Positions 1,002-63,963 of a stretch of 64,000 bases of DNA are shown piece after piece. A program made the translations under genes and the position numbers. Positions within the stretch are counted from its first letter, which is position 1. Every line of letters starts with the position of its first letter. The notes beneath the pieces are model-generated. The model was not told the origin of the DNA. It saw only the letters and a list, made by a program, of their open reading frames with translations, and searched no databases. This DNA is from a virus. Location: IMG/VR virus record IMGVR_UViG_3300031485_000046; one strand, given 5' to 3'.

Positions 1002-1011
1002 TTAGGCCCTC

Positions 1012-3098: not shown

Positions 3099-3607
3099 GG
3101 CAATACATCTCTCGCTTTCCATGCACAATAATACAACATACTTGTACAAGATGCCGCAGGAATATAATACCATGTAACAGATTTTTTGAATCGTTTTTCC
3201 TTTTCAATCTTGATAAAGTTAATGGATTGTAGAAATTTAATAACCTCCCGTATCTTTTTAAGCGGGAATAGCGTTCTCTCTTGCATTTTTCGTAAAGGGT
3301 ACGTAAACCAGATATTTCCTTGTTTATCTTCATGGTACTTATCTATCTCATCTAATTTTCGTTCTGCTGGATATAAATAGTAATGATCATACCCGGAATT
3401 TCCGTATGTGTCTTCCGCTATTTGTTTGGCTTCTATCATTAGTGAAATGATTACTGCCGTTTCAGTACCCATTATTTTAAGGATATTTGAGTCAATCATA
3501 ATCCTATCCATCCCACATAGATTCCATGCTACTTTTTCACGAATATCGGAAGTTATTTCCTTTCCATATACTTTCATAAATGTTTCCATATTCGGTAAAC
3601 TTTCCAT
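3086..3607 (-). CDS. hypothetical protein
   Basis: 173 aa ORF with strong SD (GGAAGGAGG) before ATG at 3607; first gene of minus-strand replication cluster. Confidence 0.6.
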   Translation of the reverse strand: MESLPNMETFMKVYGKEITSDIREKVAWNLCGMDRIMIDSNILKIMGTETAVIISLMIEAKQIAEDTYGNSGYDHYYLYPAERKLDEIDKYHEDKQGNIWFTYPLRKMQERTLFPLKKIREVIKFLQSINFIKIEKEKRFKKSVTWYYIPAASCTSMLYYCAWKARDVLPWKK

Positions 3608-6541: not shown

Positions 6542-8569
6542 CTACTCCGCATAGGAATTCAGCATCGCGGTAAGCATAGAGCCTTCAGGAACATCTTCCC
6601 CATCCAGTACCGCAGTAATCACCTTTCTCTTTTCATCTATCATTTCTGCCAACCTTTCTTCAATTGTGCCTCTGGGAAGAAGATACCAAATGTTGACAGC
6701 ATTTTTTTGTCCAATACGATTGCACCTGTCCTCCGCCTGATCTAGGAGCCCAGGTGTCCAAGGCAGTTCAAGGAAAGCTACGTTGTGGGAAGCGGTAAGT
6801 GTGATACCTACTCCAGCCGCCTTAATATTACCTACGAACAATCTTACGGAAGGGTCATTCTGAAATCTATCCACTATCTCTGCTCGTTTTTGGGCAGATA
6901 CAGACCCGTCTATTTTTACCGCAATCCCTGTATTGAATTCATCCATAATGGCTGATATGATTTCCTTGTGGACAGCAAACACTACAAGTTTATGGGAAGT
7001 ATCGTTCAGGAAATCTTTAATCCATTCAATCGCACCCTTTAATGCACCCTTAGCCGCCATAAACCTAAGAGCAGAAATCTGGGCAAGTGCTTCCGCATTA
7101 GAAGCCTTAGCCGCTGCCAACGCACCTTTATTTTCAGTAACCCAACCAATAAAATCTCTTTCTACCTTTCGATATTCCTTCTCATTAGACAAGGCTACAG
7201 GGATGACTGCTCTCTGCTTAGGTGGCAATTCTGTCAGGACTTCTTCTTTCCTTCTACGGATCATAACTCCCTGAAGTTTTTCGTACAATTCTTCGAGATT
7301 AGAAGCACCATTGTAATCCCAACCGAATCCATTGTGCTTGGCATCGCAGTACCGATTGGCAAAGTGCATGAAATTAGGAAAGAGATTAGGTTCTACCATG
7401 CGGATAGCATTGTATATCTCCTTAGGCCGATTGATTACGGGTGTTCCTGACATAGGAATAATATGAGGGATCCTTTTTGCCAATGCTTTCACGGCTTTGG
7501 TTCGGATAGTAGCATTGTTCATTATTGCCTGACATTCATCCAGTACCAGCACCTTAGGACTAAGGCTTGCAAGGTATTCTTGCCATCCTGCCACTATATC
7601 ATAATTAAGGATGATTATGTCAGGGTTATCAAGTTGGTATGCCTTTTTTCCTTCAAGTACAACTGCCTTTCTATCATCAGAAAGGCATCCTTTCACTTCT
7701 TTCAGCCAATTATATTTTACCACTGCTGGTGAAATGACAATAGTAGGCTTCAGTTCAGGATGGGCATGAATGTAGGCAAGGGCTTGAATAGTTTTGCCTA
7801 GTCCCATATCATCTCCAATTATTGCTTTACCATTCCGATGTTCCAAAAAAGCTACTCCCTGTGCTTGGAAAGGGTACAGCTTTTTCTTCAAACCTTCTAT
7901 ATTCGCTTCCTTCATATCATGGACAGATTTCTCTATCCTTGATATGATGTTCACCAGCCCTTCATCAATAGAGAAACCCCATTCTTTTACCTGTTTGATA
8001 GAGGCAGGCGAAGCAGAAGCAACCCAATACTTTTCGGTTTCCTTGCTGACAAATGACCTGTTAGGAAGCGATTTTACCTTCCCAAGCAGATCACCTGTAG
8101 GCTCGAAGGTTAGTTTCATCATATCGCCAGCGACTAATGTGGCGATACTTTTCTGAGGTTCCCGATTACCATCGTAGGATTTGTGAGTAGAAGGCACCTG
8201 AACAGTTCCCGCGTCCTCGTAGGCTATGAGAACAGATTTAGGGAACCAAGAATCAACAACCTTGCTTCTCGTAACACCTTTTGCCATCTCGATCTGTTCT
8301 GGCGTAAGGGATTCAAGAACAAGGTCACGCAAGCCCCAGTCCTTAAGACACTCAGGACCAATGCCAATGAGTTTAGAACCGGGATGGGTAAGTGCTCTTC
8401 CACATTTGGAACAACGAACTTCTGGATCAATCTCACCGTACCCGTATAGGTAAACTGCTCTTGCAGTTTCCCTAAGGATTGCGGCTTTGAAGTATATTGG
8501 TACACCTTTCTCTCTTGCTACTATGGGTCTGGTTCGATAGAACTTTGCAGGCAGCTCCATGAATGTCAT
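6542..8569 (-). CDS. SNF2-family DEAD-like helicase/ATPase with N-terminal zinc ribbon
   Basis: 675 aa; motif I 'DDMGLGKT', motif II 'VLVLDECQ', helicase C motif 'DQAEDRCNRIGQ'; N-terminal 'CSKCG...C' ribbon. Confidence 0.85.
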   Translation of the reverse strand: MTFMELPAKFYRTRPIVAREKGVPIYFKAAILRETARAVYLYGYGEIDPEVRCSKCGRALTHPGSKLIGIGPECLKDWGLRDLVLESLTPEQIEMAKGVTRSKVVDSWFPKSVLIAYEDAGTVQVPSTHKSYDGNREPQKSIATLVAGDMMKLTFEPTGDLLGKVKSLPNRSFVSKETEKYWVASASPASIKQVKEWGFSIDEGLVNIISRIEKSVHDMKEANIEGLKKKLYPFQAQGVAFLEHRNGKAIIGDDMGLGKTIQALAYIHAHPELKPTIVISPAVVKYNWLKEVKGCLSDDRKAVVLEGKKAYQLDNPDIIILNYDIVAGWQEYLASLSPKVLVLDECQAIMNNATIRTKAVKALAKRIPHIIPMSGTPVINRPKEIYNAIRMVEPNLFPNFMHFANRYCDAKHNGFGWDYNGASNLEELYEKLQGVMIRRRKEEVLTELPPKQRAVIPVALSNEKEYRKVERDFIGWVTENKGALAAAKASNAEALAQISALRFMAAKGALKGAIEWIKDFLNDTSHKLVVFAVHKEIISAIMDEFNTGIAVKIDGSVSAQKRAEIVDRFQNDPSVRLFVGNIKAAGVGITLTASHNVAFLELPWTPGLLDQAEDRCNRIGQKNAVNIWYLLPRGTIEERLAEMIDEKRKVITAVLDGEDVPEGSMLTAMLNSYAE

Positions 8570-8592
8570 GGTTTAATGCCCTCCTTTGGATT

Positions 8593-8904
8593 TTAGATGA
8601 GTTTCTGGTTCCTATTTAGCATTCCCTTCAGTTCATACTCCTTTTTTAACTTGTGGTAATACAAGTGCCAATCTGGAAGGGGATTCATGTGCAATTTCCC
8701 ATCCCCCGATTCTGAAATGAACCATACTGCAAATCCTAACTTTCCTGAATACCGAACGAGGAACTGGTCCCCGTTCTCGTTCATCCGCACCGCGTAACTC
8801 CAGCGGATGGTTTCTCCGCGGGCCTTCATATTCCGCATGGAAAAATGCTGATCGCCTTGTGATATAAAGGCCCTACGAAGTTCGTTTACCGTATACTTTT
8901 TCAC
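8593..8904 (-). CDS. hypothetical protein
   Basis: 103 aa ORF in tightly packed minus-strand operon. Confidence 0.5.
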   Translation of the reverse strand: MKKYTVNELRRAFISQGDQHFSMRNMKARGETIRWSYAVRMNENGDQFLVRYSGKLGFAVWFISESGDGKLHMNPLPDWHLYYHKLKKEYELKGMLNRNQKLI

Positions 8905-9246
8905 CTACATACCCTCCTTTATTCCGTATCTTTTTACTACCTCAAGTCTGCCACAAGGTATACCCCCTATTTCAAATTCTACATAATCCTCTTCCTTTAC
9001 CATAAATGTGATATTGGACAATCTTACGGTAGGTTTCAACAGGTATTTCTTTATAACCTTTTTAAGTAGTTTATCCGTAGTCCATGTTTCCTCGTCCATT
9101 GTTAAAGGGGAATCGTGTTTCCATTGATCATTGACTTCATATCCCTCTTTTTTGTTGCCCCATACATCATACAGCCATATCTGAACATCCATATACTTTT
9201 GTTCCATCTTTAGTCCCCCCTTCATATTGATAAGGTACAAGAGCAA
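8905..9246 (-). CDS. hypothetical protein
   Basis: 113 aa ORF; true start may be the internal Met near 9207. Confidence 0.5.
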   Translation of the reverse strand: MLLYLINMKGGLKMEQKYMDVQIWLYDVWGNKKEGYEVNDQWKHDSPLTMDEETWTTDKLLKKVIKKYLLKPTVRLSNITFMVKEEDYVEFEIGGIPCGRLEVVKRYGIKEGM

Positions 9247-9300
9247 GGTATGATACTATTTTATTTCATAGTGTAATAATATCATACCTTTTTTGTTATG

Positions 9301-10068
9301 TCAAACGCCAGTTGTGTCTGGCTTCATTATTTCATCAGCAATATACATACCATTTCTGGAAAACACTTCGCCTAATTTCACAAGCCCTTCAATAATTTCC
9401 TTTTCATCCGTTAGCTCCTCGTAAAAATCCCTAAGTTTTAGAAAGGTATACCTAGAAAGCATTTTTATATAATGAGTTAGCCGTTCCTCTAGCAAGGAAA
9501 TATTTCTCTGAATAGTATCCATTACCTCATCAGATACAGGTACAAGAATCCCCTCACCAATATCCGTTGAAGGAAATAGGGTGTTTTCATGGCAGTATAT
9601 ATTAGTGGAGCCGGAAATATAAATATCTAACTTTCCTAGATATTCAACCTTAGTATATTCCACATTAGGGAAGGGGTGTTCTACATACGAAAGTATCCTA
9701 TAAACCAAATCTGGATATGTTTGTTCAAGATGGTGCCAGAATGATCCAAACCCTCGAAAGGTACGGCAATCTTTCTCTACCGTTTTTTCAAACCATTCTT
9801 CATGCCAGCTACCAACTGCTTGAGGAATATCTGTATCCTTGAGGACACAAGTAATTCTAGCACCATCATTCTTACAAGGATACGTAAAATCAGAATGTTC
9901 AAAGCCAATAAATGTTATCCCTTGCAATTTAAGAAACAACCGTACCTCTGCATAAAAATGCTCGTCCCATTCCTCGGGAAGCTCTACCTTATATTCCGCA
10001 AGTGCCTTTCTCTGGATATTGGCGTCCAATTCATTATATCCGTACACTCGTATTTTCCTGATTTTCAT
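9301..10068 (-). CDS. hypothetical protein
   Basis: 255 aa ORF, no recognised motifs. Confidence 0.55.
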   Translation of the reverse strand: MKIRKIRVYGYNELDANIQRKALAEYKVELPEEWDEHFYAEVRLFLKLQGITFIGFEHSDFTYPCKNDGARITCVLKDTDIPQAVGSWHEEWFEKTVEKDCRTFRGFGSFWHHLEQTYPDLVYRILSYVEHPFPNVEYTKVEYLGKLDIYISGSTNIYCHENTLFPSTDIGEGILVPVSDEVMDTIQRNISLLEERLTHYIKMLSRYTFLKLRDFYEELTDEKEIIEGLVKLGEVFSRNGMYIADEIMKPDTTGV

Positions 10069-50973: not shown

Positions 50974-51342
50974 TTATTTACCTTTGTTTTTCTGCAAAAG
51001 CTGAAAGAATACTTTTGCATCCATAATTACGATAGGATCTTTTCGACTTTTTTTCGCAAACAGCAACCATTCTGTTCCTGGAATGGTATTGGTTTGCGCT
51101 TGCTCTATCCAAGATGGGATAGACCAATTTTCCTGTGCTTTACACTCAACAGAGTATGGAAATTCTTTCAGCACTTTTGCTTCCATGCGAACATCTACGC
51201 CATTCTGCCCCATACCTCTAGATTCGATAGGGCAATCGTGGCCCCATTCATACCCAGTTAGATTCGATATTTGTTCACAAACCCATTTCTGTAGCCTGCG
51301 ACCTTTATCCTTAGCAGATGCAACAGATATCCGTTTTTTCAT
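50974..51342 (-). CDS. putative PD-(D/E)xK nuclease (possible Holliday junction resolvase)
   Basis: 122 aa; 'GVDVRM...VECKAQE' resembles D...ExK; located beside RecA-like gene. Confidence 0.4.
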   Translation of the reverse strand: MKKRISVASAKDKGRRLQKWVCEQISNLTGYEWGHDCPIESRGMGQNGVDVRMEAKVLKEFPYSVECKAQENWSIPSWIEQAQTNTIPGTEWLLFAKKSRKDPIVIMDAKVFFQLLQKNKGK

Positions 51343-52403
51343 ACCAATACCCTGCGTTTCCTATTGGAATCGAATTGTGATTCAACTTCTTCCCATAAAT
51401 CAATTACAGCATCTTCCAATTTCTTTTCAAGCCCGTCTTCTTCAATCATCCGAATAGATTCTTCTAATGATTTGCCTAGTTTCGTATCTCCAAGCGCATA
51501 AACAGTATTACCGCTCATCTTCTTCAGGTATTGCAGATTCTCTCGAATATTATCAATACCATAATCAAAGATTATAGTTAAAGGAGCAGAACGATACGGC
51601 TTCCATACAGAATTCTTGTATACTTCCACTTCTGTAGTTACGCCAATTACTCGTTCCACTTCCTTTTTGTTGATAGTTTTTACAACCTTTATCTTTTTAG
51701 GACTACTGAATTTCAGTCGAGTGGATGCATAAAATCCAATTGCAAATCCACCTGCGGCAGAAGTTTTTTCAGCATAAGGAGAAGAATCTCCTGAACTCCT
51801 TACCTGATTAGAACAGACCACAAGAAACTTCTTTTCCGTAATGACACGGCAGGTTTTTCGTAGCTGTTCCGAAAACTCCTTTGCCCTTCTCATTCCCATT
51901 TTGTCGCCTTCTTTTCCCTCTAATTCAAGGTTGGTAGAAAGAGCGGCTAGAGAATCCACAAATACTCCGTGCAAATTTCCTTCAGGTTCTGGTGCCCATT
52001 TACGAATAGGTTCAAACACTTCAGGTACAGTATCAGGGTGGTCTATCTCCATTTCCTCTACATCAAGATCGAACATCGTAGCAAATTGCCTATTCAACCT
52101 TGCTTCGGGATCACGAAAGAAAATAGAACCACCCTGCCTTTGTATTGCACCTGCTATCTGACATAACACAACTGTCTTACCACTGCCTGATGGGCCAAAT
52201 GCTTCTACGAGCACTCCACCCGGCAACCCACCACCTCTTACCCTTCCACCTGATATAGCAAGGTCAAGCAACGTAGAACCCGTAGATACTTTGTGCGTAA
52301 AATCACCATCATACTCCTTTTTCTTTGCAGGTGGTTCACTCATTCTTTGCTTTATCTGGGTAGTTAATTTACTTGGCGTCAGCTTTTTCTTTCTTACCAC
52401 CAT
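51339..52403 (-). CDS. RecA/UvsX-family recombinase
   Basis: 354 aa; 'VSTGSTLLDLAISGG..GGLPGGVLVEAFGPSGSGKT' matches RecA N-terminal/Walker A region. Confidence 0.75.
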   Translation of the reverse strand: MVVRKKKLTPSKLTTQIKQRMSEPPAKKKEYDGDFTHKVSTGSTLLDLAISGGRVRGGGLPGGVLVEAFGPSGSGKTVVLCQIAGAIQRQGGSIFFRDPEARLNRQFATMFDLDVEEMEIDHPDTVPEVFEPIRKWAPEPEGNLHGVFVDSLAALSTNLELEGKEGDKMGMRRAKEFSEQLRKTCRVITEKKFLVVCSNQVRSSGDSSPYAEKTSAAGGFAIGFYASTRLKFSSPKKIKVVKTINKKEVERVIGVTTEVEVYKNSVWKPYRSAPLTIIFDYGIDNIRENLQYLKKMSGNTVYALGDTKLGKSLEESIRMIEEDGLEKKLEDAVIDLWEEVESQFDSNRKRRVLV

Positions 52404-52779
52404 TCTCTATCTCCTCCATGCGTTTGATGATAGCTTCAATCTGGTCTACTGTAAGTTTCTTTTTATTCAGTAGACCACTGGCAGTAATCTTATACCGATC
52501 CATTGGTATATTATCAGCCTTAAGGAGTAAGAGCCGTTTTGCAATATCATTCACCATTGTAGGCGTTGAAGGAGCTTCCTTGCTTAGTTCCTTCTCCACT
52601 AAATCACATATAACATGTGATCTGGACAGACCTTTGTACACCGTATATAGGCTAAACTTGTCGGCAAGGGCAGGGGGAAGATACCCCCCTGCCATCTTGT
52701 TCCGATCAAGAAGAGCCTTAGGCTTTTTTTCTACAGGAGCAATCACTTCAGCCTTTTTCTTCTTAATCGTCTTCGCCAT
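52369..52779 (-). CDS. hypothetical Lys-rich protein
   Basis: 136 aa, basic termini. Confidence 0.5.
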   Translation of the reverse strand: MAKTIKKKKAEVIAPVEKKPKALLDRNKMAGGYLPPALADKFSLYTVYKGLSRSHVICDLVEKELSKEAPSTPTMVNDIAKRLLLLKADNIPMDRYKITASGLLNKKKLTVDQIEAIIKRMEEIENGGKKEKADAK

Positions 52780-52781
52780 AA

Positions 52782-54056
52782 TTAATCCTCCTTAGCATCC
52801 ATACAATCGTCCCATTTCGCACAATCATCACATTCATCATATTCTTCACAATCTTTTCCGAATACATGACCGTGCGGACACTTGTTCTTTCCAGCTTTCT
52901 TATTTACCTTTTCTTCTTTCTTTCCCTTTTTAGCAGGTTCTTCTTTCAGTTTCTTTCTACCAGTACCATCACAGGGATTGCATACGCCCCCTCTAGAATT
53001 CTTACCAGTACCCTTGCAAGCCACACATTTTTCCTTTTCCGGAATATCTTCCTCTTCTTCCTCTTCTTCTACTTCATCATCATCTTCATCATCGTCCGTA
53101 TCCTCTTCATCCTCCTCTTCTTCATCTTCGTCATCCGTATCTTCATCCTCATCTTCGTCAGAGATGTCGTCCTCGTCCTCGTCATCCTCGTCAGAAGAAT
53201 CATCAGCATCGTCTTCATCCTCTTCGTCAGGATCAGCCTCTTTCTTTTTCTTGGATTTCATCATACTACGGACAGAAGTTCCATCTTCTTCTTCGTCATC
53301 CTCAGTTTCATACTCAAAGAATTTAGCTTCCAGCTCATTATACGTAAGCACCTGAAGAATCTCATCCAGATTAGGAACATCTTTCAGATCCTTTTCCTTA
53401 TATGGCTTTTCACGTTCTTCAAAATCAATTCTGGAGGTAGCGGCGTACTTATTCTTACCAAACTGTTCCTCGCTGAAACGAATCTTGAGAGTAAGCCCTT
53501 CATCAGGATCAGGGAATACAGCATTCGTATCATCTTCTTCAAGTTCCTCATTCAGCTTATCCTGAAAAAGATACTGCGAAATATCCCAAATATGAGGTTT
53601 CTTTTCGTGATCCTTTGAATTCAGAGGCACCACTACGTACAAGTTCCGAAGAGAAGGCTTGAGTGCCTTCAGTTCATCGTCTTCCGCATCTCCATCTTTC
53701 ACTCGCTTAGCTCGATGTTCGCAGATAGGACATTTCTTACCGAAAGTTGTGAGGCAGACAAAGGTTTCCTTATTTGCCCCTATTCCGCGATGTACTTTAT
53801 ACGGCTTCTTATACCACTGCTCTCCAACAGTAGCAATACCAAGATCCACATTCTTATCCATATGCTTTGGGTCTGTAACAGTATATGGAAGAATGTCGAG
53901 TGATACTCTAGAACCCGGCTCTTCTTTGAATACTCGAATATTTTTAGGCAGATTCAGATATCCGTATTTAGAACCTTGTGCTTTCTGCTGTTTCACATTA
54001 CCAGCAACTGCCGCCCTGAATTTGCTGTTACTGCCCTTTTTTCCAAGTTTAGCCAT
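52782..54056 (-). CDS. putative gp32-like ssDNA-binding protein with long poly-acidic tract and C-terminal DnaJ-type CxxCxGxG zinc finger
   Basis: 424 aa; His/Cys spacing 'VHRG..FVCLTTFGKKCPICE' resembles T4 gp32 zinc site; ~100-residue D/E tract; 'CVACKGTG','CNPCDGTG'. Confidence 0.45.
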   Translation of the reverse strand: MAKLGKKGSNSKFRAAVAGNVKQQKAQGSKYGYLNLPKNIRVFKEEPGSRVSLDILPYTVTDPKHMDKNVDLGIATVGEQWYKKPYKVHRGIGANKETFVCLTTFGKKCPICEHRAKRVKDGDAEDDELKALKPSLRNLYVVVPLNSKDHEKKPHIWDISQYLFQDKLNEELEEDDTNAVFPDPDEGLTLKIRFSEEQFGKNKYAATSRIDFEEREKPYKEKDLKDVPNLDEILQVLTYNELEAKFFEYETEDDEEEDGTSVRSMMKSKKKKEADPDEEDEDDADDSSDEDDEDEDDISDEDEDEDTDDEDEEEEDEEDTDDDEDDDEVEEEEEEEDIPEKEKCVACKGTGKNSRGGVCNPCDGTGRKKLKEEPAKKGKKEEKVNKKAGKNKCPHGHVFGKDCEEYDECDDCAKWDDCMDAKED

Positions 54057-54058
54057 AT

Positions 54059-54211
54059 TTACTTTTCCTCCTTATGATTTATAATGTGAATTGGCCCTTC
54101 ACAATCAGGATCCACACATTCTTTACAACCGATAGTTCGTCTTGCCTGCGTAATATGCTCACAATGCACACAACCCTCTTCAGGGTAGTTTCTGCACTGG
54201 AACCAAGGCAT
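54059..54211 (-). CDS. small zinc-ribbon protein (50 aa)
   Basis: Own translation MPWFQCRNYPEEGCVHCEHITQARRTIGCKECVDPDCEGPIHIINHKEEK; strong SD GAGGAGG 7 nt upstream; below track cutoff. Confidence 0.4.
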   Translation of the reverse strand: MPWFQCRNYPEEGCVHCEHITQARRTIGCKECVDPDCEGPIHIINHKEEK

Positions 54212-54375: not shown

Positions 54376-54870
54376 CTATGATTTCCTCGCTTTCTTTTTC
54401 TTCACCATAGAAGCGGCAACGGTTTCATTCACTTTCTCATTTTTCCGCGTCCTCTCTTCTGAAAGATTTCTAGGAATAGACGGCCCTGCAAAATACTGCA
54501 TACCATGTAGCTTGATTAACCCATCAAGTGTATCTTTTCTGGAAGCGATCGCATCGAATGCTGATTTAGCCATACCGTACCTATACTGTGCTTCGATTAC
54601 TTCCTCCGCGGCTTTCTTGTAAGAATCTTGAAGGATGATTGTATCTGCTACAAGATTCTCGGTTATCTTGCCCAAACCAAATGCATCAGGATCTGCTCGT
54701 ATCTCTTTACTCAACTCAGCCTTAACAGCGTCAAACTGTTCCTTCATATAGTCAAGTTCCTTCCTAGCTTCACTTACTACATCTCCGTATTTCTTCATCA
54801 GGATCGGCTGTTCAAGCAATTCTACATCAAGGGCAGTTTCGTCAATGTTTACATCAAGATTGTACTCCAT
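54376..54870 (-). CDS. hypothetical protein
   Basis: 164 aa, coiled/acidic. Confidence 0.55.
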   Translation of the reverse strand: MEYNLDVNIDETALDVELLEQPILMKKYGDVVSEARKELDYMKEQFDAVKAELSKEIRADPDAFGLGKITENLVADTIILQDSYKKAAEEVIEAQYRYGMAKSAFDAIASRKDTLDGLIKLHGMQYFAGPSIPRNLSEERTRKNEKVNETVAASMVKKKKARKS

Positions 54871-54941: not shown

Positions 54942-55856
54942 TCAATTTTCTCCGCAAACAATAGAAAAACATGCAAACGTAAGTCCTGGAAATCCCGTAT
55001 TGTAGAACGGTTCTATGAACTGTTCCATAACTAGCCCTGCTTGCATGTTCTCTCCCTTAAGGAGAATCGTGTTGCAGTAGCTAAGAACCAGCCTGCGAAT
55101 TGACTCAGGATCTTGGTCTTTCAACTTAGTAAGAATTCCTGCCACTTTCTTCCAAGGTGCTTTTTGCATAAGAACACGGCATAATTCAATAGCATCTGAT
55201 TGTACCTCAGCCGCTCTCTTTGCAACTTCTATCCGCATTTCAGCGGGCACACCAAGCACCTGATCCAATATCTGCAACGCATTTCTTGGATGACCCTGAC
55301 TATCCATAATAATCTGTTCATACACTTCTTTAGTCAATTTATGTCCTTCTGTTTTTACAACAGAACGAAGCAAGGTCATCATTTCTGAATCTGTTAACTG
55401 TTTCACCTGATACTGTGAACATCTTCCTTTTATCGTAGCAATCAATTTCTGTGGATCTGTCGTAGCCAATATATAGTAAACATGTGGTGGTGTATCTTCC
55501 AACGCTTTTAGTAGTGCGGACTGGGCATCATTGGTTAGTCGATGAACTTCATCCAGTAACCACACTCTACATTTACCTGATAAAGGTTTATACTGCGATT
55601 GCCTGCGTATTTCCCTTACAGTTTCAATGCCTCGAAAATCAGCACTATCCACTTCCTTAAAATCATCTTCTGAACAACCAAGTTCCGTAGCGATGATTCT
55701 ACCAAGGGTAGTCTTACCACAACCGGTAGGGCCGTGCAGAAGATATGCATGAGGATGATCTTCTTTAGCCAGATCCGATTTGAGTGCCGCTACCACTTCT
55801 ACGTTGCCAACAACCTCGTCAAAAGTAGCTGGACGATATTTATGATAAAGGGACAT
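54942..55856 (-). CDS. clamp loader ATPase (DNA polymerase III gamma/tau / RFC-like)
   Basis: 304 aa; 'YRP..F.EVVGN', Walker A 'GPTGCGKTT', Walker B 'VWLLDEVH', sensor 'TT', 'GRC' box. Confidence 0.8.
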   Translation of the reverse strand: MSLYHKYRPATFDEVVGNVEVVAALKSDLAKEDHPHAYLLHGPTGCGKTTLGRIIATELGCSEDDFKEVDSADFRGIETVREIRRQSQYKPLSGKCRVWLLDEVHRLTNDAQSALLKALEDTPPHVYYILATTDPQKLIATIKGRCSQYQVKQLTDSEMMTLLRSVVKTEGHKLTKEVYEQIIMDSQGHPRNALQILDQVLGVPAEMRIEVAKRAAEVQSDAIELCRVLMQKAPWKKVAGILTKLKDQDPESIRRLVLSYCNTILLKGENMQAGLVMEQFIEPFYNTGFPGLTFACFSIVCGEN

Positions 55857-56262: not shown

Positions 56263-58080
56263 TTATTTGAAATGGTAATCTCCCTTCTCATTCCAAGAAC
56301 AATCAACAGGACACACTTCTGCTTCTACTTCCAAGGGTACATTTATCCAGCTCCAGTGCTTAGGTAAATCTTCACAAGTAATCCTATGAACAGTAGACGC
56401 AACCATATCTAATTCGTCAGGATGCACATCCAACACCATTGCGTCATGTATCTGTCCGATCAATCTGGATTTCCAGTTCTGTTCTCTGGATATCTTGTCA
56501 ACCTGAATGAACGACCATAACAGACAATGAAATGCACTTCCCTGAATAGGAATATTTATGCATTCATTCCTACGCATGATACCAGAACATCTGAATCCTG
56601 TGTACATGCTCACATACCCGTTTTTTTGATACCCTTCCCACCACTTGTCTTTCCAACGATTATACACTTTGAATCGCCTATTCCAAAAATCATCTTCAAT
56701 TTTCTTGATATGGTCCGTAAACTTATCGAAGGAATCTAGCTTGTTTGCAATCAAGTGGTCGGAAATATGACCTCCGTCATGCTCAATGCCTTCACCTTTC
56801 TTCCATTTGCCTTTAGATAATCCGCACCATTTACAAGCAATATTTTCGGCGCAGTTTACATAATAGTCACCATAGAACTGCGGAAATACAAATCCGTTCT
56901 TTGCCGCTTGCCTCATCATTTTATGCGATGGTATACTCTTGTCTAACTTATCAAGTACAAATATCTGACAAGCCATATCACCGTGCATATCCGATGAAGG
57001 ATCTTCAATGTACTTTCTCATAACAGGGTCATGATGGTAACACTCGCTGATTCTTACTTCCACTCCTGAATAGTCTATTTCAAGTAGCTGGTGACCTGGC
57101 TTAGGAAATATCGCTTTGCGAGTAATCTCCATAGCCTCTTTATCTCGCTTGGGAATATTTTGGAAGTTTATCCGCTCCGATGAATTATGTACGCATATTT
57201 GGTTCACGATAAAATTATGATATTTTTCCACTTCAATATCGTACACATCTACCGGCTCATCAAGGTACTCTATTGTGTGGTCTGTATGATTAGACAATAC
57301 CTTATTAGAAAGACGTGTATCTGATAACGCCCTCGCTTGCACGTATGTTCCATCTATTAGACGGATTTTGTGCTCAGGTGTCACATCTAAGTATCCTTTC
57401 CCACCTCCACCGTTTATAGAGTAATGGATTCGCACAACTTTCTTATGTCCTGTTTTGCCAGCCCATATAACTTTTTGAATAGAAGGGCGGAGTTTATCGT
57501 CAAAACAATACACATAATCACCCTTCTTTACATTTTCAATAGGGGTCCCTTCTGGTTGTGCTTCAAAATCTTTCATTACCAATACTTTAGATCCTTTAGC
57601 TACACAAGAGCGAAATGTCTTTACTGTATGCAAATTAAAGAAAGGATGCAAGTATCCGCCTACTTGTTCTCTTATGAAAGCATCCAGATACGTATCTCGC
57701 ACCTTTTTCAATTTGCGCATTTCCAAAATCCACTTTATCTCAGGAATATCAATCTGGGAAAGTGCTTCATCGTCTGTTGCACCCTTGCCAGATGGTGTCA
57801 ACTTTGCAGGGGTGATTTTCCTAACATTGTACAAAAGGTGTGCTAACTGCCAATTAGAATCAGGGTTAGCCTTAGCACCATACACCTTCGTCCAATGCAT
57901 ATAGAATTTAGTATCCCTGAGTTTTCTATCCAATCGTGCTATTTTTTTGTCAAGGTACTCTTTTTTCTTTAAGCAGTAATCAACATCAATCCGCATTCCT
58001 TCTTGTTCTGCCCTCGCAAAAGCAAGGATGCCATCTTGCAATAGCTGATATGCTTCAGGAAGATTAGGTGTCAGTTGCAT
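56263..58080 (-). CDS. polA: family A DNA polymerase, polymerase-domain subunit (intein-containing)
   Basis: Motif A 'LLEIDYSGVEVR', motif B 'RQAAKNGFVFPQFYG', motif C 'QIHDAMVLD'; SD AAGGAGGG 8 nt before ATG 58080 (track start 58107). Confidence 0.85.
   Translation of the reverse strand: MQLTPNLPEAYQLLQDGILAFARAEQEGMRIDVDYCLKKKEYLDKKIARLDRKLRDTKFYMHWTKVYGAKANPDSNWQLAHLLYNVRKITPAKLTPSGKGATDDEALSQIDIPEIKWILEMRKLKKVRDTYLDAFIREQVGGYLHPFFNLHTVKTFRSCVAKGSKVLVMKDFEAQPEGTPIENVKKGDYVYCFDDKLRPSIQKVIWAGKTGHKKVVRIHYSINGGGGKGYLDVTPEHKIRLIDGTYVQARALSDTRLSNKVLSNHTDHTIEYLDEPVDVYDIEVEKYHNFIVNQICVHNSSERINFQNIPKRDKEAMEITRKAIFPKPGHQLLEIDYSGVEVRISECYHHDPVMRKYIEDPSSDMHGDMACQIFVLDKLDKSIPSHKMMRQAAKNGFVFPQFYGDYYVNCAENIACKWCGLSKGKWKKGEGIEHDGGHISDHLIANKLDSFDKFTDHIKKIEDDFWNRRFKVYNRWKDKWWEGYQKNGYVSMYTGFRCSGIMRRNECINIPIQGSAFHCLLWSFIQVDKISREQNWKSRLIGQIHDAMVLDVHPDELDMVASTVHRITCEDLPKHWSWINVPLEVEAEVCPVDCSWNEKGDYHFK
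57184..57606 (-). other. mini-intein (141 aa, Hint domain only) in the 'TxRxSS' motif of the polymerase
   Basis: Residues C168..N308 of track ORF: block A 'CVAKGSKVLV', block B 'TPEH', block F 'VYDIEVEKYHNFIVN', block G 'CVHN' followed by Ser; flanks join to 'TFRS|SSERINFQNIP' like Pol I 'TGRLSSTDPNLQNIP'. Confidence 0.8.
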
Positions 58081-59342
58081 CCTATGTACCCTCCTTGCTG
58101 AATCCATCGCATTTGTTTAGATGCTAACCGGTAAGTGAACAAACTATCCATACCACAGTATATCAATAGTTTATTCCAAATATCAGATCCTACAGGAACA
58201 TCAAGCAATTTGTTCATGGAATTGCTATCTTTATCATCCGCCCCTTTAAGATATGGAGCGACCTCATCATCATACCCTGCTACACCAAAATTGATATAGG
58301 TTTGTATCTTCAATCCTGTGATGTCTGGTCTGTTATCAAGAATGTGTGTAGCCAACATAGTATCCCATATCCAGTTTTTTACTTCATACCCCAGAATATT
58401 TTGTGTCCATGTGTGTTCAAACTTCAGATTTTGGGCAATCTTTCCTATCTTGTCTGATTGCAAAATTTCCTTAAGCAGTCTATTTCCTTTCTTACTTTTA
58501 GGCATCCCAAAAACTATTGCATCTTCAGGATTACTACACATGGACATGCAGATGATTTTGTGCTTGCTTGTATCATGCGGTTTAAGGCCCGTCGTTTCAT
58601 AATCAATAGCAATAGAAAACGGAAACTTTCTAGAAAGAAACTCTTCAAAAATTCCTACTAGCTCACTTTCTGATTTTACTATCTTGATAGCCGTCATTTC
58701 ATCTGGATATGTTTGCATAGACATGTCCACTGTATTTAATGCCCTGTCAAGGTCCTGTTTCCATACTGTTCGATATTCCTGTGCATCTTGTTTTTCTACA
58801 AACTCTGGATGAAATATCGGGCAGATCCACGTATTGTATTTCCTATCTGGAATAGTAAATCCTCTCCATTTATTCATTCCACCTAAATTCTTTGTCCAGA
58901 TAGAACCTATCACGGAGTTTAATGCTAGTTCACCTACAAGAATTATCACTTTAGGTTTATACTGCTCAATAGTAGATAGCACTCTTCGTCGGCAACATTG
59001 AACTTCTTTTGTCCACGGATTGGTGGTTTCCTTGGACCCTGAAGCATAGCAAGACAAAGCAAAGAGATTCAGACAGTCTTTGAACAAATCAACGCCTCTA
59101 CGTTCAAATTCTCGCCTAAGCGTTGTTCCAAATCTGTCTTGCCACGGTTTGCCTACTCGATCATCTCTACTGCTTGGCATATCACCAATGACCATTATTT
59201 TCTTTTCAAATTCCCCGAATGGTGCCATTCTAGGAGACGAAATATCTTTATACAACCCACAAGAAGCGCAAGAGAAAGCCTTATTACCACTAGGCCTAGT
59301 TTTAGATTTAGTTTCTTCTACTGAAAAGAATCCACTAGCCAT
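58071..59342 (-). CDS. DNA polymerase N-terminal subunit: UDG-like (family 4-type) domain + 3'-5' exonuclease domain
   Basis: 423 aa; 'CASCGL' and 'FHPEF' UDG-family-4-like elements with degenerate motif A ('GDMPS'); Exo I 'IAIDYETTGL', Exo II 'NLKFEH', Exo III 'YCGMDSLFTY'. Confidence 0.75.
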   Translation of the reverse strand: MASGFFSVEETKSKTRPSGNKAFSCASCGLYKDISSPRMAPFGEFEKKIMVIGDMPSSRDDRVGKPWQDRFGTTLRREFERRGVDLFKDCLNLFALSCYASGSKETTNPWTKEVQCCRRRVLSTIEQYKPKVIILVGELALNSVIGSIWTKNLGGMNKWRGFTIPDRKYNTWICPIFHPEFVEKQDAQEYRTVWKQDLDRALNTVDMSMQTYPDEMTAIKIVKSESELVGIFEEFLSRKFPFSIAIDYETTGLKPHDTSKHKIICMSMCSNPEDAIVFGMPKSKKGNRLLKEILQSDKIGKIAQNLKFEHTWTQNILGYEVKNWIWDTMLATHILDNRPDITGLKIQTYINFGVAGYDDEVAPYLKGADDKDSNSMNKLLDVPVGSDIWNKLLIYCGMDSLFTYRLASKQMRWIQQGGYIGCN

Positions 59343-59346
59343 CTTA

Positions 59347-60354
59347 CTAACCTTTCATTTCTAGAACGCCAACATACTCCCAATTATCTCCTATGAACTT
59401 GATAGCGTTTTCACCAAGAATGCATTTTTTAAGCATTTTACTTACATCCTTAAGAAGTTCAGGACGAATAGTAAATTTCTTTTCCTCACCTTTATATTTC
59501 AGATTCATCTCTTCTTCAAACCAGCCAACTTCAGACTGACCACGAATAATCATGCGTTTGGGCTTGATAGTTATTGTTACAGCATTACTTTCTGCTTCAC
59601 TGGAAAAGATAGACGCACGGTCTAACACCTCTTCAATAGCTCTAGGCAATTCAAAATCCGCACCCTGCACATCCATATATTTCGACACATCTGGAAATGT
59701 ATCTCCGAAGAAAGTTCGGCAAGAATACTCCGTACCTTTCTCAGTCTTGAAATGAATCCACCCGTGCCCTTCTGCAATATGTGTGGGTACACATCCATTC
59801 AATCTCTTTATAGTGCTTGCTGGCAAAAGAAACGTAGACACAGGCATCTTTTCAGTTAACTTGTACACCATTATTCTATAACTGTCAGACGCTTCAACGG
59901 AACCTTTTTCTGTCACATTTACACAAGTAATGATCGGACGGCTCATATCATTGGAACAAGCAAAGGAAACAAATTTAAGCGCCTTCATAAGACCTTCAGG
60001 TACTTTCTTCCATTTGCTTTTCTCACCAATCGCTTCTAGAGGCATCCGTATCTTTTCTTGAAGAGTAAGTCCTGCTTTAGCTTTACCTGCTTTCATGCGA
60101 ACCTCAGAACCATTTGCCTCTATTTCTACATCATTGGTTTTCATTTTGCACAGCACCTGATAAAACTCGTCAGCCTTGATAGCACCCTCAAGCCCATCTA
60201 ATCCTTCCACAGGATGGGACACACTTATTTCGTCATTGAATGTCATTACTTTCCCATCCTTAAAAGCAAAGCAGGTAGACTGTTCAATGTGCTCCTTAGA
60301 CGCAAGACCGGGCTTCACTATTTCAAGAGCTTCCAGAATATCTTCCCTATTCAT
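59347..60354 (-). CDS. DNA sliding clamp (DnaN/beta-like)
   Basis: 335 aa; 'SRPIITCVNVTEKGSVEASDSYRIMVYKL' resembles DnaN domain-2 'RYYLNGM..VATDGHRLAV'; adjacent to polymerase. Confidence 0.6.
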   Translation of the reverse strand: MNREDILEALEIVKPGLASKEHIEQSTCFAFKDGKVMTFNDEISVSHPVEGLDGLEGAIKADEFYQVLCKMKTNDVEIEANGSEVRMKAGKAKAGLTLQEKIRMPLEAIGEKSKWKKVPEGLMKALKFVSFACSNDMSRPIITCVNVTEKGSVEASDSYRIMVYKLTEKMPVSTFLLPASTIKRLNGCVPTHIAEGHGWIHFKTEKGTEYSCRTFFGDTFPDVSKYMDVQGADFELPRAIEEVLDRASIFSSEAESNAVTITIKPKRMIIRGQSEVGWFEEEMNLKYKGEEKKFTIRPELLKDVSKMLKKCILGENAIKFIGDNWEYVGVLEMKG

Positions 60355-60956: not shown

Positions 60957-61928
60957 TTATATAGTGAATAATCCTTTGCTTACTTGGAATTGAACTCCTT
61001 TGCGATATTCATTCACCCATTGCTCTAATCCTAGAATGTATCGGATGTTAATTTCACAACGAACATCAAAGGATTGAATCTCATCATACGTGTACCCATC
61101 ATCTTCAATCTGTTTTAATTTCCGAGGTGTAAGTACACCCATTCCTTTACTAGACCGTTGCTTCGATACACAAAACACCATCGGTTGCTTTGAATAATCA
61201 GGATTCTTGAATCCACCGATAGGGTACATGATAGAACCCCACGCGGCAACTATTCTCCAAGTAGCGGCATCAGCACTAGTAAAAGGTAGCGTTTTCAGCA
61301 CGGGCAACATCCATACTGCAAATCCGTGTGTTTTAACACGGATTCTATTTATATGGATGTAAGAAAATACTGACCGCATCCAAGATAGCCTAGATTGGAC
61401 ACTCATATCGTTTGCAGGTGACACTCCGATATAGTCAGTAAGTTCTACCATTTTGTGCAACCATTCCCAATCTTCTCCTTGATGGAAGACATGAATAGGA
61501 GTGATCCCTGCATCTTTCATCCTAAGAAGATTTTCGTATCCTTTCGCGGCCGCTGTATTGATAATTTTCTTATTCTCCGCAGTCTTCACTCGATTGAGAT
61601 GTGTAGAAGTACCAGGAGAACCGGGGATCACATCGAGGTTGACTACCCTCAACTTTTTATTATCATCCGCCGCTATTTGGATTGCCTCTTTAGCATAACT
61701 AATGTAGGCGTCAATGGGAATAGAATGACCTTTAGCCCATGCTGAAAACGCACCTGAATCAAGAATGATGTTTCCATTTAATGTAGGAACTTGTCTGCAC
61801 CATTCTTTAAGCTGTTTTGGATAGAGATAAGAAACCAGTCTGTTCGTAATCCGCCTGTTGAGTTCCTTACCGCGTTCTTCCTTAGGATTAAAAACAGGAC
61901 CGGCAAAATACAAACGGACTGGCTTCAT
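60957..61928 (-). CDS. dpdA: DpdA-like tRNA-guanine-transglycosylase-family DNA 7-deazaguanine transglycosylase
   Basis: 323 aa; 'ILDSGAFSAW' resembles TGT 'DSGGFQ' catalytic motif; adjacent to queF and queC. Confidence 0.65.
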   Translation of the reverse strand: MKPVRLYFAGPVFNPKEERGKELNRRITNRLVSYLYPKQLKEWCRQVPTLNGNIILDSGAFSAWAKGHSIPIDAYISYAKEAIQIAADDNKKLRVVNLDVIPGSPGTSTHLNRVKTAENKKIINTAAAKGYENLLRMKDAGITPIHVFHQGEDWEWLHKMVELTDYIGVSPANDMSVQSRLSWMRSVFSYIHINRIRVKTHGFAVWMLPVLKTLPFTSADAATWRIVAAWGSIMYPIGGFKNPDYSKQPMVFCVSKQRSSKGMGVLTPRKLKQIEDDGYTYDEIQSFDVRCEINIRYILGLEQWVNEYRKGVQFQVSKGLFTI

Positions 61929-61930
61929 TT

Positions 61931-62374
61931 TCAGTTACCTGTTCCGTCGTACTCGGCAATCACCGAAATATCAGTACCACCTCTGCGATTGAAATTAGCC
62001 TCTATTCGCATGTGGTACGGTTTGCAAGCGTTCGACAGATCGTCCAGTATTTTGTTTGTAACAGACTCCATAAACGCTCCGTGCTGACGATATGCTCCCA
62101 TGTATATCTTGAGTGCTTTCGTTTCCAAACAAAAATCCTTTGGAAAGTATCGAATCGTGATAGTGCCAAAATCAGGATTTCCTGTACGCGGACACAGACT
62201 GGAAAATTCCGTGAATACGAACTCCGTGGCGTATTGCCTGTCTTTGCACGGATTATCAAATACTTCAAGAAGAGCTGGATCTGGATTATTGTACCTGTCG
62301 TACGGTACGACTGTTCCGAGGTTTTTCAGATGGTCTACATTCACTTTTCTATCCATTGTTTGCACCCTCCTCAT
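61931..62374 (-). CDS. queF: NADPH-dependent 7-cyano-7-deazaguanine reductase (unimodular QueF)
   Basis: ~145 aa; catalytic-Cys region 'FSSLCPRTGNPDFGTITIRY' and QueF motif-like 'ETKALKIY'. Confidence 0.8.
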   Translation of the reverse strand: MRRVQTMDRKVNVDHLKNLGTVVPYDRYNNPDPALLEVFDNPCKDRQYATEFVFTEFSSLCPRTGNPDFGTITIRYFPKDFCLETKALKIYMGAYRQHGAFMESVTNKILDDLSNACKPYHMRIEANFNRRGGTDISVIAEYDGTGN

Positions 62375-63044
62375 AGAATACTGGGTCGATCAGATTGTTT
62401 TCTGCAAAGGCCTCAAGGCGTTCATAACAACTTCCACATTTTCCGCAAGGATTCGGTTGGTTCTTGTAACAAGTTCTTGTAAGGTGATATGGTGCGTTAT
62501 TTGCAATACCATACTGCACTATCTGACTTTTAGACATGTGAAGGAACGGTGCAAGTATATTCACATTTCTATCCGTACCAAGATAAATCGCTGTATCCAT
62601 TGCTTTATGAAATTCTGGGCGACAATCAGGGTAAATAGCATGATCGCCTCTATGAATTCCTATAGCAATATTCTCTATACCTTTTGACCACGCCATACCG
62701 GCTAGGATCGACAGGAACACTAGATTACGAGCAGGTACCACCGTCTGACTCATATTCGATGATTCATAGTGTCCTTCCGGTATTTCTCCACCGCTTAGAA
62801 GCAGACTAGATTCCATTCCAGTAAATGCTCCGGACAGGTCTACAACTTCGTAGGTCAATTCGCAAGGAACGGCAGACACATAATATTTCAATACTGCGTC
62901 TGCCGCTCTTCGTTCGTACACATTGTGTTTGCTACCGTACTGGAAATTTACACAATGGATTTTCTTGAATTCCTTGCGAATAAGCCAAGCAAGAACTGTT
63001 GCAGAATCCAGTCCTCCTGAGAAAGAAAGGACTGCGGAACGCAT
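62349..63044 (-). CDS. queC: 7-cyano-7-deazaguanine synthase
   Basis: Start at ATG 63044 (track ORF 62349..63188 carries an implausible Arg/Lys-rich extension); PP-loop 'SFSGGLDS'; zinc site 'CYKNQPNPCGKCGSC'. Confidence 0.85.
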   Translation of the reverse strand: MRSAVLSFSGGLDSATVLAWLIRKEFKKIHCVNFQYGSKHNVYERRAADAVLKYYVSAVPCELTYEVVDLSGAFTGMESSLLLSGGEIPEGHYESSNMSQTVVPARNLVFLSILAGMAWSKGIENIAIGIHRGDHAIYPDCRPEFHKAMDTAIYLGTDRNVNILAPFLHMSKSQIVQYGIANNAPYHLTRTCYKNQPNPCGKCGSCYERLEAFAENNLIDPVFYEEGANNG

Positions 63045-63045
63045 C

Positions 63046-63963
63046 TTACTTCTTCTTTCCAGCCTTCTTGCCAGCTTTCGCTTCCTTAGCCGGAGCGGTC
63101 TTTGCAGGCGCTTCCTTCTTTGCAGAAGCTTTCTTTTCCGCCATTTCTGCCTTCGCCTCCTTCTTTTTAGAAGATTTACTACCACCATCGTGCTTCACGA
63201 TTTCCTTAGTGATCTTACTGCCTTTCTCACACTTGATATCCGTGAACTTCACGATGTTGCCATCTTCCTTGTCAATGTAGATAAGCACAGGGAAGCGGCA
63301 ATATTTAGGATTAGTCCCATCAGAAAGAATTGTAGAAAGAGCGGCGATGGTTGCGTCGGGGAACTGCTTTGCCGCAAGTTCGATCAGATCCTTTTTGCTG
63401 TACCGACCCTCATTGATAAGGTCGATAAAAAATTCGATCCTTTTGGCAGTCTTATTGCCACCAAATATCTCATCCTTCGTTTTCGTGGGCTTATCAGATT
63501 TTGCAGGCTTTTCTGCCTTCGGAGCCTTAGCAGGCTTTTCTTCCTTGGCTTTACTCTTGCCCTTCTTAGGAATAGGAAGTACCTCTATTTCGTCTTCCTC
63601 TTCTTCCTCTACATCGTCACCGTCTTCGACATCTTCGTCCTCATCGCTTTCGTCCCCATCTTCCCCTTCCTCGTTGACCCCTTCATCGTCTTCGTCTTCA
63701 TCGTCAGCTTCTTCGTCCCCTTCGACTTCTTCCTCATCCGCATCCTCCTCGTCGGCATCCTCTTCCTCTTCATCAGCATACTTAGCCTGAATCTGTGCAA
63801 GAATATCCATCGTTTCCTCGGAAAGTCCATCCTCTTCGCTTACAGCTTCAGAAGCCTCAAGCAGTTCAGCTTCCAGTTCGTCAGTACCGAGCTTTACATC
63901 AATGGGAGGCTCGATAATAGTATTAATCTCCTTAGCCGCCTTAACCAGTTCACTTTTCTTCAT
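63046..63963 (-). CDS. hypothetical protein with ~70-residue poly-acidic tract and Lys/Ala-rich histone-H1-like C-terminus
   Basis: 305 aa; D/E run about 63560..63780; C-terminal 'KKEAKAEMAEKKASAKKEAPAKTAPAKEAKAGKKAGKKK'. Confidence 0.6.
   Translation of the reverse strand: MKKSELVKAAKEINTIIEPPIDVKLGTDELEAELLEASEAVSEEDGLSEETMDILAQIQAKYADEEEEDADEEDADEEEVEGDEEADDEDEDDEGVNEEGEDGDESDEDEDVEDGDDVEEEEEDEIEVLPIPKKGKSKAKEEKPAKAPKAEKPAKSDKPTKTKDEIFGGNKTAKRIEFFIDLINEGRYSKKDLIELAAKQFPDATIAALSTILSDGTNPKYCRFPVLIYIDKEDGNIVKFTDIKCEKGSKITKEIVKHDGGSKSSKKKEAKAEMAEKKASAKKEAPAKTAPAKEAKAGKKAGKKK

Follow-up and report, generated by a model that had tools for sequence, protein, structure and literature searches.

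The gene at 52782..54056 of a 64,000-nucleotide stretch of viral DNA (IMG/VR record IMGVR_UViG_3300031485_000046; the whole stretch is called the window below) encodes the phage's replicative and recombinational SSB (single-stranded DNA-binding protein), which is of the T4 gp32 type and is predicted to bind single-stranded DNA (ssDNA). While the SSB itself is of a known kind, the architecture of its C-terminal tail is unusual, largely undescribed and widespread in uncultured phages. We consider it probable that the protein is a gp32-type SSB equipped with an autoinhibitory acidic tether and with metal-stabilised docking heads. The gene is a single open reading frame (ORF) with an ATG start and 424 codons plus the stop, and it lies on the minus strand, as do all parts of it whose coordinates are given below. 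The original prediction, made from the DNA letters, had given exactly these coordinates and left the strand unstated. A 60.6-kb Logan contig includes a called gene for an identical protein. Two ORFs that overlap it on the plus strand (52866..53618 and 52882..53355) encode poly-Ser/Phe and were discarded as low-complexity artefacts.

A gp32-type core with a predicted zinc site

Five parts of the protein could be delimited by composition and by the confidence of an AlphaFold2 (AF2) model, which was built with a 45-sequence alignment and was confident for the core. Residues 1-242 have a net charge of +2, and their predicted local distance difference test (pLDDT) score was mostly >90 from residue 31 onwards. 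The model shows residues ~31-250 in the gp32 oligonucleotide/oligosaccharide-binding (OB) fold, with a conserved His/Cys3 structural zinc site; the core as delimited (residues 31-250) corresponds to 53307..53966. When it was compared with the PDB by Foldseek, the best match was the core of RB69 gp32 (2A1K, E=9.2e-7), followed by T4 gp32 (8GME, E=9.3e-6), and the top four matches were all RB69 or T4 gp32 (E=9e-7 to 2e-4, probability 1.00, target TM score up to 0.65). The OB-fold that the original prediction had proposed to look for by this means was thus recovered as that of gp32. The Pfam profile for gp32, PF08804, matched the N-terminal 250 residues with E=1.7e-5 and 25.3 bits (cut-off 26.8 bits), and 12 of 45 relatives matched it at E<=0.01. 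Alignment of the family with T4 gp32 by hhalign, for which we used a sequence 100% identical to T4 records, gave E=2.7e-4 and a probability of 41%, with the zinc cysteines aligned. The protein also matched PHROG 1192, an SSB family (E=3.4e-9), and the BFVD library of viral models returned 27 matches at E<=1e-3, several of them named ssDNA-binding protein. A search with residues 1-250 yielded 606 homologues, all metagenomic, none of which bears a functional name. Because of composition bias, a Pfam scan with the full-length protein missed gp32 and returned only a spurious match of the acidic tract to Nop14. A match to bovine antibody knobs, from the PDB-chain sequence search, was set aside as due to chance.

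The putative zinc ligands are H89, C101, C109 and C112 (residues 89-112, 53721..53792), and their spacing, H89-x11-C101-x7-C109-x2-C112, is close to that found in T4 gp32, H64-x12-C77-x9-C87-x2-C90. H89, C101 and C109 were invariant among the 45 aligned relatives and C112 was present in at least 90% of them. The pairing of C101, C109 and C112 with T4 C77, C87 and C90 came from hhalign, while H89 was matched to T4 H64 only by its spacing (x11 versus x12) and its invariance. The resemblance to the T4 gp32 zinc site that had been noticed in the original prediction is therefore borne out both by conservation and by the alignment of the cysteines. The broader claim of a gp32-like SSB likewise held, in view of the Foldseek, PF08804 and hhalign results and of a T4-like replication and recombination neighbourhood (see below).

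The core is preceded by a basic N-terminal segment, MAKLGKKGSNSKFR... (residues 1-30, 53967..54056), with the conserved consensus MAKxxxxSKFxxKV, in which AF2 predicted a helix at residues 12-26 with low-to-moderate confidence. By analogy, this segment is a candidate counterpart of the N-terminal cooperativity ('B') domain of gp32. The likeness to T4 and RB69 gp32 (PF08804; 1GPC, 2A1K, 8GME) thus comprises an OB-fold core with a His/Cys3 structural zinc site, a basic N-terminus, an acidic C-terminal region, and the presence alongside of genes for a UvsX-like recombinase, a weakly UvsY-like protein, a clamp and a clamp loader. In contrast, the identity in the structural alignment is about 15%, the acidic region has roughly double the length of the A domain of gp32, is far more acidic and is followed by two Cys4 modules, and the window phage belongs to the siphoviruses and has a family A polymerase, whereas the T4-like phages are myoviruses.

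A long polyacidic linker

The core is followed by a polyacidic linker (residues 243-339, 53040..53330), which comprises 97 residues, of which 67% are Asp or Glu, and carries a net charge of -58. Over 71 of these residues in a row, D and E make up at least 80%, and the pLDDT of the linker was <50 across residues 256-332, as expected for a disordered region. The almost uninterrupted D/E tract announced in the original prediction was correct as to position and acidity, and slightly generous as to continuity, since a basic island, GTSVRSMMKSKKKKEA (residues 259-274), breaks it. The length and charge of the linker vary widely within the family: its median net charge is -16, and the window protein and its closest relatives, with -57 to -62, represent the extreme. 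Relatives that are 97-100% identical in the core differ by indels of 1-4 residues in the Glu runs, and the DNA of the tract is an imperfect 3/9/12-nt repeat. Both observations fit a rapidly evolving, unstructured spacer.

The acidic regions of gp32, T7 gp2.5 and E. coli SSB are known to vie with DNA for the basic cleft, and they also offer binding elements to partner proteins. The proposal that the tract of the window protein could act as a DNA mimic or recruit partners agrees, by analogy, with what is established for these tails.

Just ahead of the first cysteine of the tail, the acidic tract closes with ...EEEEDIPE (residues 335-343, 53028..53054): EEEEDIPEKEKC. A tract ending of the type (D/E)n-I-P-E/F/A was observed in the window protein and in about ten relatives, among which P0037 reads EDEEIPFKERC. 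In sequence, endings of this kind read like the DDDIPF tip of bacterial SSBs copied to an internal site.

The CxxCxGxG hairpin

Two CxxCxGxG repeats, CVACKGTG (residues 344-351) and CNPCDGTG (residues 359-366), stand 7 residues apart after the linker (residues 344-366, 52959..53027), and they are the sole matches to this motif inside any gene of the window. Among the 26 relatives that carry the motif, all cysteines and glycines of the pair consensus, CxACxGTGxNSKGxxCxPCxGTG, are invariant; the pair is therefore not a chance occurrence. The residues 340-372 form a confidently predicted block, with pLDDT values of 90-93 for the hairpin. The similarity to the cysteine-rich (CR) domain of DnaJ is partial: PF00684 (DnaJ_CXXCXGXG) was matched with E=0.014 and 16.1 bits, for a cut-off of 32.7 bits, over profile positions 1-29 of 65, and 17 of 26 relatives also gave sub-threshold matches. 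The match to the anti-TRAP profile PF15777 was weak (E=0.14). Two repeats were present (residues 344-366) and not the four of a DnaJ CR domain, and a Pfam scan detected no J domain in the window protein. The DnaJ-type zinc-finger repeats of the original prediction are thus real, and they amount to half a domain.

An isolated model of the C-terminal region (mean pLDDT 68) had anti-TRAP (3LD0, 2BX9) and the DnaJ CR domain (1EXK) as its nearest structures, none of them at a significant level; for 3LD0 and 2BX9, Foldseek gave E values of about 1.5 and a TM score of 0.44 over 32 columns. The hairpin was also similar to small stand-alone phage proteins, namely phrog_3931 (E=1.2e-4) and a 59-residue protein of Shigella phage Sf18. 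From its sequence, we take the pair to be one predicted Cys4 hairpin forming a single metal centre, equivalent to half of a DnaJ CR domain and anti-TRAP-like in module type only. Both DnaJ CR (PF00684; 1EXK) and anti-TRAP (PF15777; 2BX9, 3LD0) have CxxCxGxG repeats, two adjacent ones of which would form one Cys4 centre. They differ in that DnaJ has four repeats, a J domain and client-binding domains, the window protein having two repeats and neither type of domain, while anti-TRAP is a protein of roughly 53 residues with one DnaJ-type Cys4 zinc centre, which oligomerises to bind TRAP.

A precedent exists for the grafting of such a module onto a phage replication protein, as the polymerases of HMO-2011-type and RCA phages contain a partial DnaJ domain with exactly two CXXCXGXG motifs (PMC9038755, PMC6918029). 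In that case a family A polymerase bears the motifs, which separate its exonuclease domain from its polymerase domain, whereas in the window phage the SSB tail bears them; the window's own polymerase contains no CxxCxGxG motif.

A conserved Cys4 mini-domain at the C-terminus

The hairpin is separated from the end of the protein by a Lys-rich spacer (residues 367-392, 52881..52958), predicted to be disordered, with 39% K/R over residues 373-395 and pLDDT values of 44-50; in relatives its length ranges from about 12 to 60 residues. The last 32 residues (393-424, 52785..52880) form a second module, in which the cysteines are spaced C393-x15-C409-x2-C412-x5-C418. They comprise five Cys and two His, have a net charge of -9, and were modelled with pLDDT values of 83-89 as containing two short helices. 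The family consensus is KCPxGHxFGxDCExxDECDxCxxWxxCxDAKE, with C393, P394, F399, G400, C409, C412 and C418 invariant. H395, H397 and C403 vary among relatives and are therefore not required ligands. The 'further Cys/His clusters' mentioned in the original prediction thus correspond to residues 393-418, where four of the cysteines are invariant and the other candidate ligands are not. The 15/2/5 spacing was kept in 255 of 263 copies, and the mini-domain usually ends about 8 residues before the C-terminus.

No match to the mini-domain was found in Pfam, in the PDB sequences (searched with the profile), in PHROGs or by tblastn of 50,697 GenBank phage records; Pfam DUF7895 was matched only below threshold (best E=0.0065, in relatives), and the isolated C-terminal model gave no structural match to this module. 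In contrast, a search of 1.84 billion representatives with a 38-position profile returned 1022 proteins at E<=1e-3, 89 of them at E<=1e-10, each standing for a cluster at 50% identity. It is the terminal mini-domain, and not the DnaJ-like hairpin, that stands out as the conserved and novel element of the tail. Its acidic charge argues against a role in DNA binding, as far as sequence can tell. The metal, if the cysteines do bind one, is probably zinc; an iron-sulfur (Fe-S) cluster is an unlikely alternative, and other ligands account for the small remainder.

The window protein ends in ...CMDAKED and lacks the D-D-D-I-P-F tip of bacterial SSBs. Three relatives carry such a tip (DIPF, DDIPF and DDISF) right after the mini-domain.

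Distribution of the two modules and occurrence on initiators

We parsed the tails of 121 proteins, i.e. the window protein and 120 listed relatives out of the 606 homologues. The terminal mini-domain was present in 109 (about 90%) and the hairpin in 34 (~28%), and 33 of the 34 carriers of the CxxCxGxG pair also had the terminal motif. Relatives therefore occur with both modules, with the terminal one only, or with neither (11/121); some of the latter are fragments, and L009 and L010 are genuinely devoid of both. A search for a module hidden in another frame, in relatives with a Cys-free tail, was positive for L003 and negative for L009 and L010. Confident pLDDT values, disordered flanks, variable presence and the placing of both modules in a separate frame in L003 indicate that, in the models, the two Cys4 modules behave as autonomous units. 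The architecture had been called unusual for an SSB; it is largely undescribed, and with 606 relatives it is common in metagenomes.

To survey the architectures we took the 150 best of the 1022 mini-domain matches, 147 of which were newly returned representatives. A gp32 core was present in 91 of these 147, and the other 56 fell into three groups: evident pieces of SSB tails; small proteins in which 2-4 copies stand in tandem (P0121, P0123, P0124, P0125, P0130, P0133, P0200); and proteins in which the mini-domain is joined to a replication initiator or DnaD-like loader, such as P0250 (phrog_19658, E=6e-29) and P0123 (winged helix-turn-helix plus phrog_270/186). P0123 and P0127 are encoded by small elements that have serine recombinases or integrases and no gp32-like SSB.

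In L005, which shares the phage type of the window, the mini-domain closes both the SSB (643..1653) and a 537-residue initiator/DnaD-like protein (8001..9614; P0250). Identity between these two copies is 82%, a value reached by only 0.23% of inter-protein pairs, and they are reciprocal nearest neighbours among 259 copies.

A split variant was observed in L003 (6990..7346), where the SSB ORF (P0078) stops at 7071 after ...PKPRKKKQKR. The hairpin and the mini-domain continue in the -1 frame from 7053, and the two frames overlap at a run of nine A (A9, 7051-7059). No start codon was found upstream of the first cysteine in the -1 frame; a -1 shift or transcriptional slippage is therefore the only way in which the SSB could acquire the module. 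The short form, P0078, was present on at least 24 contigs. The sequence suggests either two SSB isoforms, short and long, as in dnaX, or heterogeneity in the length of the homopolymer. In the window gene, the only slippery homopolymer run was an A6 at codon 5, and nothing pointed to isoforms.

Proposed function of the tail

On ssDNA, the proteins of replication, recombination and repair are organised by SSB tails, which act as hubs. If the window protein works like gp32, T7 gp2.5 and E. coli SSB, its basic N-terminus would mediate cooperative filament formation, while electrostatic attraction would bring the polyacidic linker back onto the basic cleft that binds DNA, where it would serve as a DNA mimic or autoinhibitor until displaced by DNA and partner proteins. 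The linker would double as a long flexible tether bearing two small, independently folded Cys4 metal modules, which would serve as protein-docking heads and not as DNA binders. The first of these, the CxxCxGxG hairpin, would be an optional accessory, and the second, the terminal mini-domain, the conserved element. The heads would recruit replisome or recombination partners, or pass ssDNA to them, a role that the acidic tip plays in other SSBs. Like E. coli SSB, with its DDDIPF tip, and T7 gp2.5, the window protein would then consist of a DNA-binding core, a disordered linker and a terminal docking element, with an acidic tail competing with DNA; it differs from them by a core of an unrelated fold family, the gp32 type, and by a docking element that appears to be a folded, cysteine-ligated mini-domain instead of a short peptide.

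We infer the docking role from the distribution of the mini-domain, namely its reuse on initiators, the near-identical pair in L005 and the DDIPF-type tips added to it in relatives, as well as from the acidity of the terminal head. The shared partner would most likely be a helicase or a helicase-loading component. This leading guess is based on the presence of the same mini-domain at the end of replication-initiator and DnaD-like loader proteins, and on the precedent of B. subtilis DnaI, in which the zinc module of the N-domain (CX2CX5CX7HX16C) mediates binding of the replicative helicase (PMC1636449).

Several observations weigh against this interpretation. The PF08804 score is just under the gathering threshold, and searches of PDB-chain sequences with the protein or with the family profile did not find gp32 and returned only noise from the acidic tract, so that the relation to gp32 was recovered by fold comparison and hhalign only. 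Metal binding by the Cys modules is deduced from the conservation of their cysteines, and the isolated C-terminal model is of modest confidence, with non-significant structural matches. As to the idea of a shared tag, it comes from one genome (L005) and from the survey of the 150 best of 1022 matches, in which some of the proteins that consist of the mini-domain by itself are evidently pieces of SSB tails encoded on short contigs. Furthermore, the mini-domain is absent from the window's own O-like initiator (1683..3173), and no further copy of either motif was found elsewhere in the window, including the polymerase, the helicase and this initiator.

Alternative explanations

The mini-domain may ligate a [4Fe-4S] cluster rather than zinc, in which case the docking or stability of the SSB and the initiators would answer to redox, oxygen or iron, a reading that we hold to be possible and still unlikely. 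CXnCX2CX5C is the cluster-ligand signature of Wbl proteins (PMC7363131) and also provides the cluster ligands in Dna2/AddB (PMC3439918), while CX13CX2CX5C is the N-terminal [4Fe-4S] site of NUBP1/Nbp35 (PMC8007109). The rigidity of the 15/2/5 spacing would fit a cluster, as would the presence of a single CxxC knuckle, a model that is helical around the last three cysteines and does not form the beta-hairpin of a zinc ribbon, and the origin of the named relatives, which come from metagenome-assembled genomes of Synergistales, Hydrothermia and Clostridia. However, the same CX2CX5C core binds Zn2+ in the N-domain of B. subtilis DnaI (PMC1636449), and a small, solvent-exposed cluster would be labile. 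With Wbl, NUBP1/Nbp35, Dna2/AddB and DnaI, the mini-domain shares the spacing of the last three cysteines and one upstream cysteine, without detectable sequence homology, and no similarity to any Fe-S family was detected in Pfam or in the PDB sequences. The Cys pattern fits that of Wbl proteins, but their G[V/I]WGG motif is absent and the Pfam scans list no Wbl family. It appears a little less probable that the mini-domain represents an undescribed [4Fe-4S] family, serving as a redox-sensitive docking tag on SSBs and initiators and, in some relatives, added to a fraction of the SSBs via a -1 shift at A9, like dnaX tau/gamma. If this were true, replisome assembly would be conditional on the redox or iron state of the host, in phages and in other mobile elements.

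The Cys modules and the Lys-rich spacer could instead make up a second nucleic-acid-binding site, for instance for double-stranded DNA, primer-template junctions or RNA. Nucleic acids are frequent ligands of small Cys4 knuckles, the hairpin and the spacer are basic (+5 and +6), and zinc modules of UvrA and lambda Q were among the weak structural matches. We find this improbable, because the terminal mini-domain has a strong negative charge (net -9 over 29 residues) and follows a linker whose own charge of -58 would repel DNA, because the DnaJ and anti-TRAP modules are protein-binding, and because in three relatives the tip appended to the mini-domain is the protein-binding one of bacterial SSBs. 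Another possibility, to which we attach little credence, is that the CxxCxGxG hairpin mimics DnaJ, engaging the host Hsp70 (DnaK) or acting as a holdase, so that the SSB would bring chaperone activity to replication. Replication of phage lambda requires DnaJ and DnaK. Residues 344-366 are, at the family level, similar only to the DnaJ CR domain, and a link to DnaJ-dependent lambda replication was raised by the authors who described the HMO-2011-type polymerase (PMC9038755). Against such a mimic, the protein is devoid of the J domain, which is the DnaK-stimulating element, it has two of the four repeats, with scores under the Pfam threshold, and about 72% of the relatives lack the hairpin while keeping the same set of replisome genes. 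The extreme acidity, with its 71-residue D/E stretch, and the PF08804 score just below threshold could also evoke a protein that is not primarily an SSB, i.e. an acidic DNA-mimic decoy, directed against restriction or the nucleoid, on a degenerate gp32-like scaffold. This is hardly credible: the zinc ligands and core residues are invariant across the 45 relatives, most members of the family have far less acidic linkers, and within a conserved replication and recombination module the gene occupies the place of the SSB, no SSB family having matched any of 30 other window ORFs scanned. A gp32-type SSB with an inhibitory tether and docking heads is the reading that we favour.

Genomic context

The window belongs to a siphovirus, with genes for terminase, portal, tape measure and a J-like tail fibre. 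The SSB gene is part of a block in which the order is clamp, split family A polymerase, clamp loader, a 164-residue weakly UvsY-like protein, two tiny ORFs and the SSB, followed by a 136-residue protein, a UvsX/RecA-like recombinase, a RusA-like resolvase, SbcC and SbcD. The clamp is encoded at 59347..60354, and a helicase at 6542..8569. On the minus strand, the recombinase is encoded two genes downstream of the SSB (51339..52403; phrog_97, E=8.9e-47; PF00154), the weakly UvsY-like protein at 54376..54870 (phrog_1069, of unknown function, E=1.6e-15; phrog_231, UvsY-like, E=5e-4), in a position that is kept in relatives, and the clamp loader, an AAA+ protein similar to DNA polymerase III gamma/tau, at 54942..55856 (phrog_5846, E=1.1e-69). 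This gene order was kept in four relatives with different tail types and in Edwardsiella phage vB_EpM_ZHS, which has been cultured. When 15 kb surrounding the gene were compared with GenBank phages by megablast, nothing was returned, and tblastn against the same phages returned one distant cultured relative, ZHS_54. This member of the family (L011 3761..5131) is located between the clamp loader and RecA and is annotated 'hypothetical'; it has Arg/Asp-rich low-complexity tails at both ends and no Cys modules.

Directly upstream of the SSB gene is a 50-residue Cys-rich ORF, MPWFQCRNYPEEGCVHCEHITQARRTIGCKECVDPDCEGPIH... (54059..54211, minus strand), with six cysteines and two CxxC pairs, which from its sequence resembles a zinc ribbon. 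The identical contig has this ORF among its called genes, and it matched no family. A gene for 50-60 residues occupies this position in relatives, the one of L003 encoding a transmembrane peptide. The 136-residue protein between the SSB and UvsX (52369..52779, minus strand), whose gene overlaps that of UvsX by 35 nt, has no Pfam or PHROG match and is a candidate regulator or partner of the SSB or UvsX. At this position there is a gene for 112-124 residues in L002, L005 and L010, one for 174 residues in L003, and none in L004.

The family A polymerase is distributed over two genes, one bearing the exonuclease and the other the polymerase (56263..58107 and 58071..59342, minus strand), and the polymerase part contains an intein, PF14890 lying between two PF00476 segments according to the precomputed Pfam annotation of the identical contig. 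A 7-deazaguanine cluster of the queuosine/archaeosine type (60957..63188, minus strand) encodes a queuine tRNA-ribosyltransferase/DpdA-like protein, a GTP cyclohydrolase and a QueC-like protein, which suggests that the phage modifies guanine in its own DNA.

Implications

To our knowledge, the hub element of SSBs is a short acidic peptide in the systems studied so far. A large lineage of uncultured phages appears to replace or supplement this peptide with folded, cysteine-ligated modules carried on a very long polyacidic tether, and the reuse of the mini-domain on replication initiators points to a shared partner. The mini-domain is widespread, with >1000 clusters at 50% identity, and yet Pfam, PHROGs and the PDB do not contain it. 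Annotation pipelines label every member of the SSB family hypothetical, and the public annotation of ZHS_54 could be improved. These proteins offer a tractable new system in which to study how SSBs hand over DNA and recruit partners and, if the mini-domain binds an Fe-S cluster, SSB function would be linked to the redox state.

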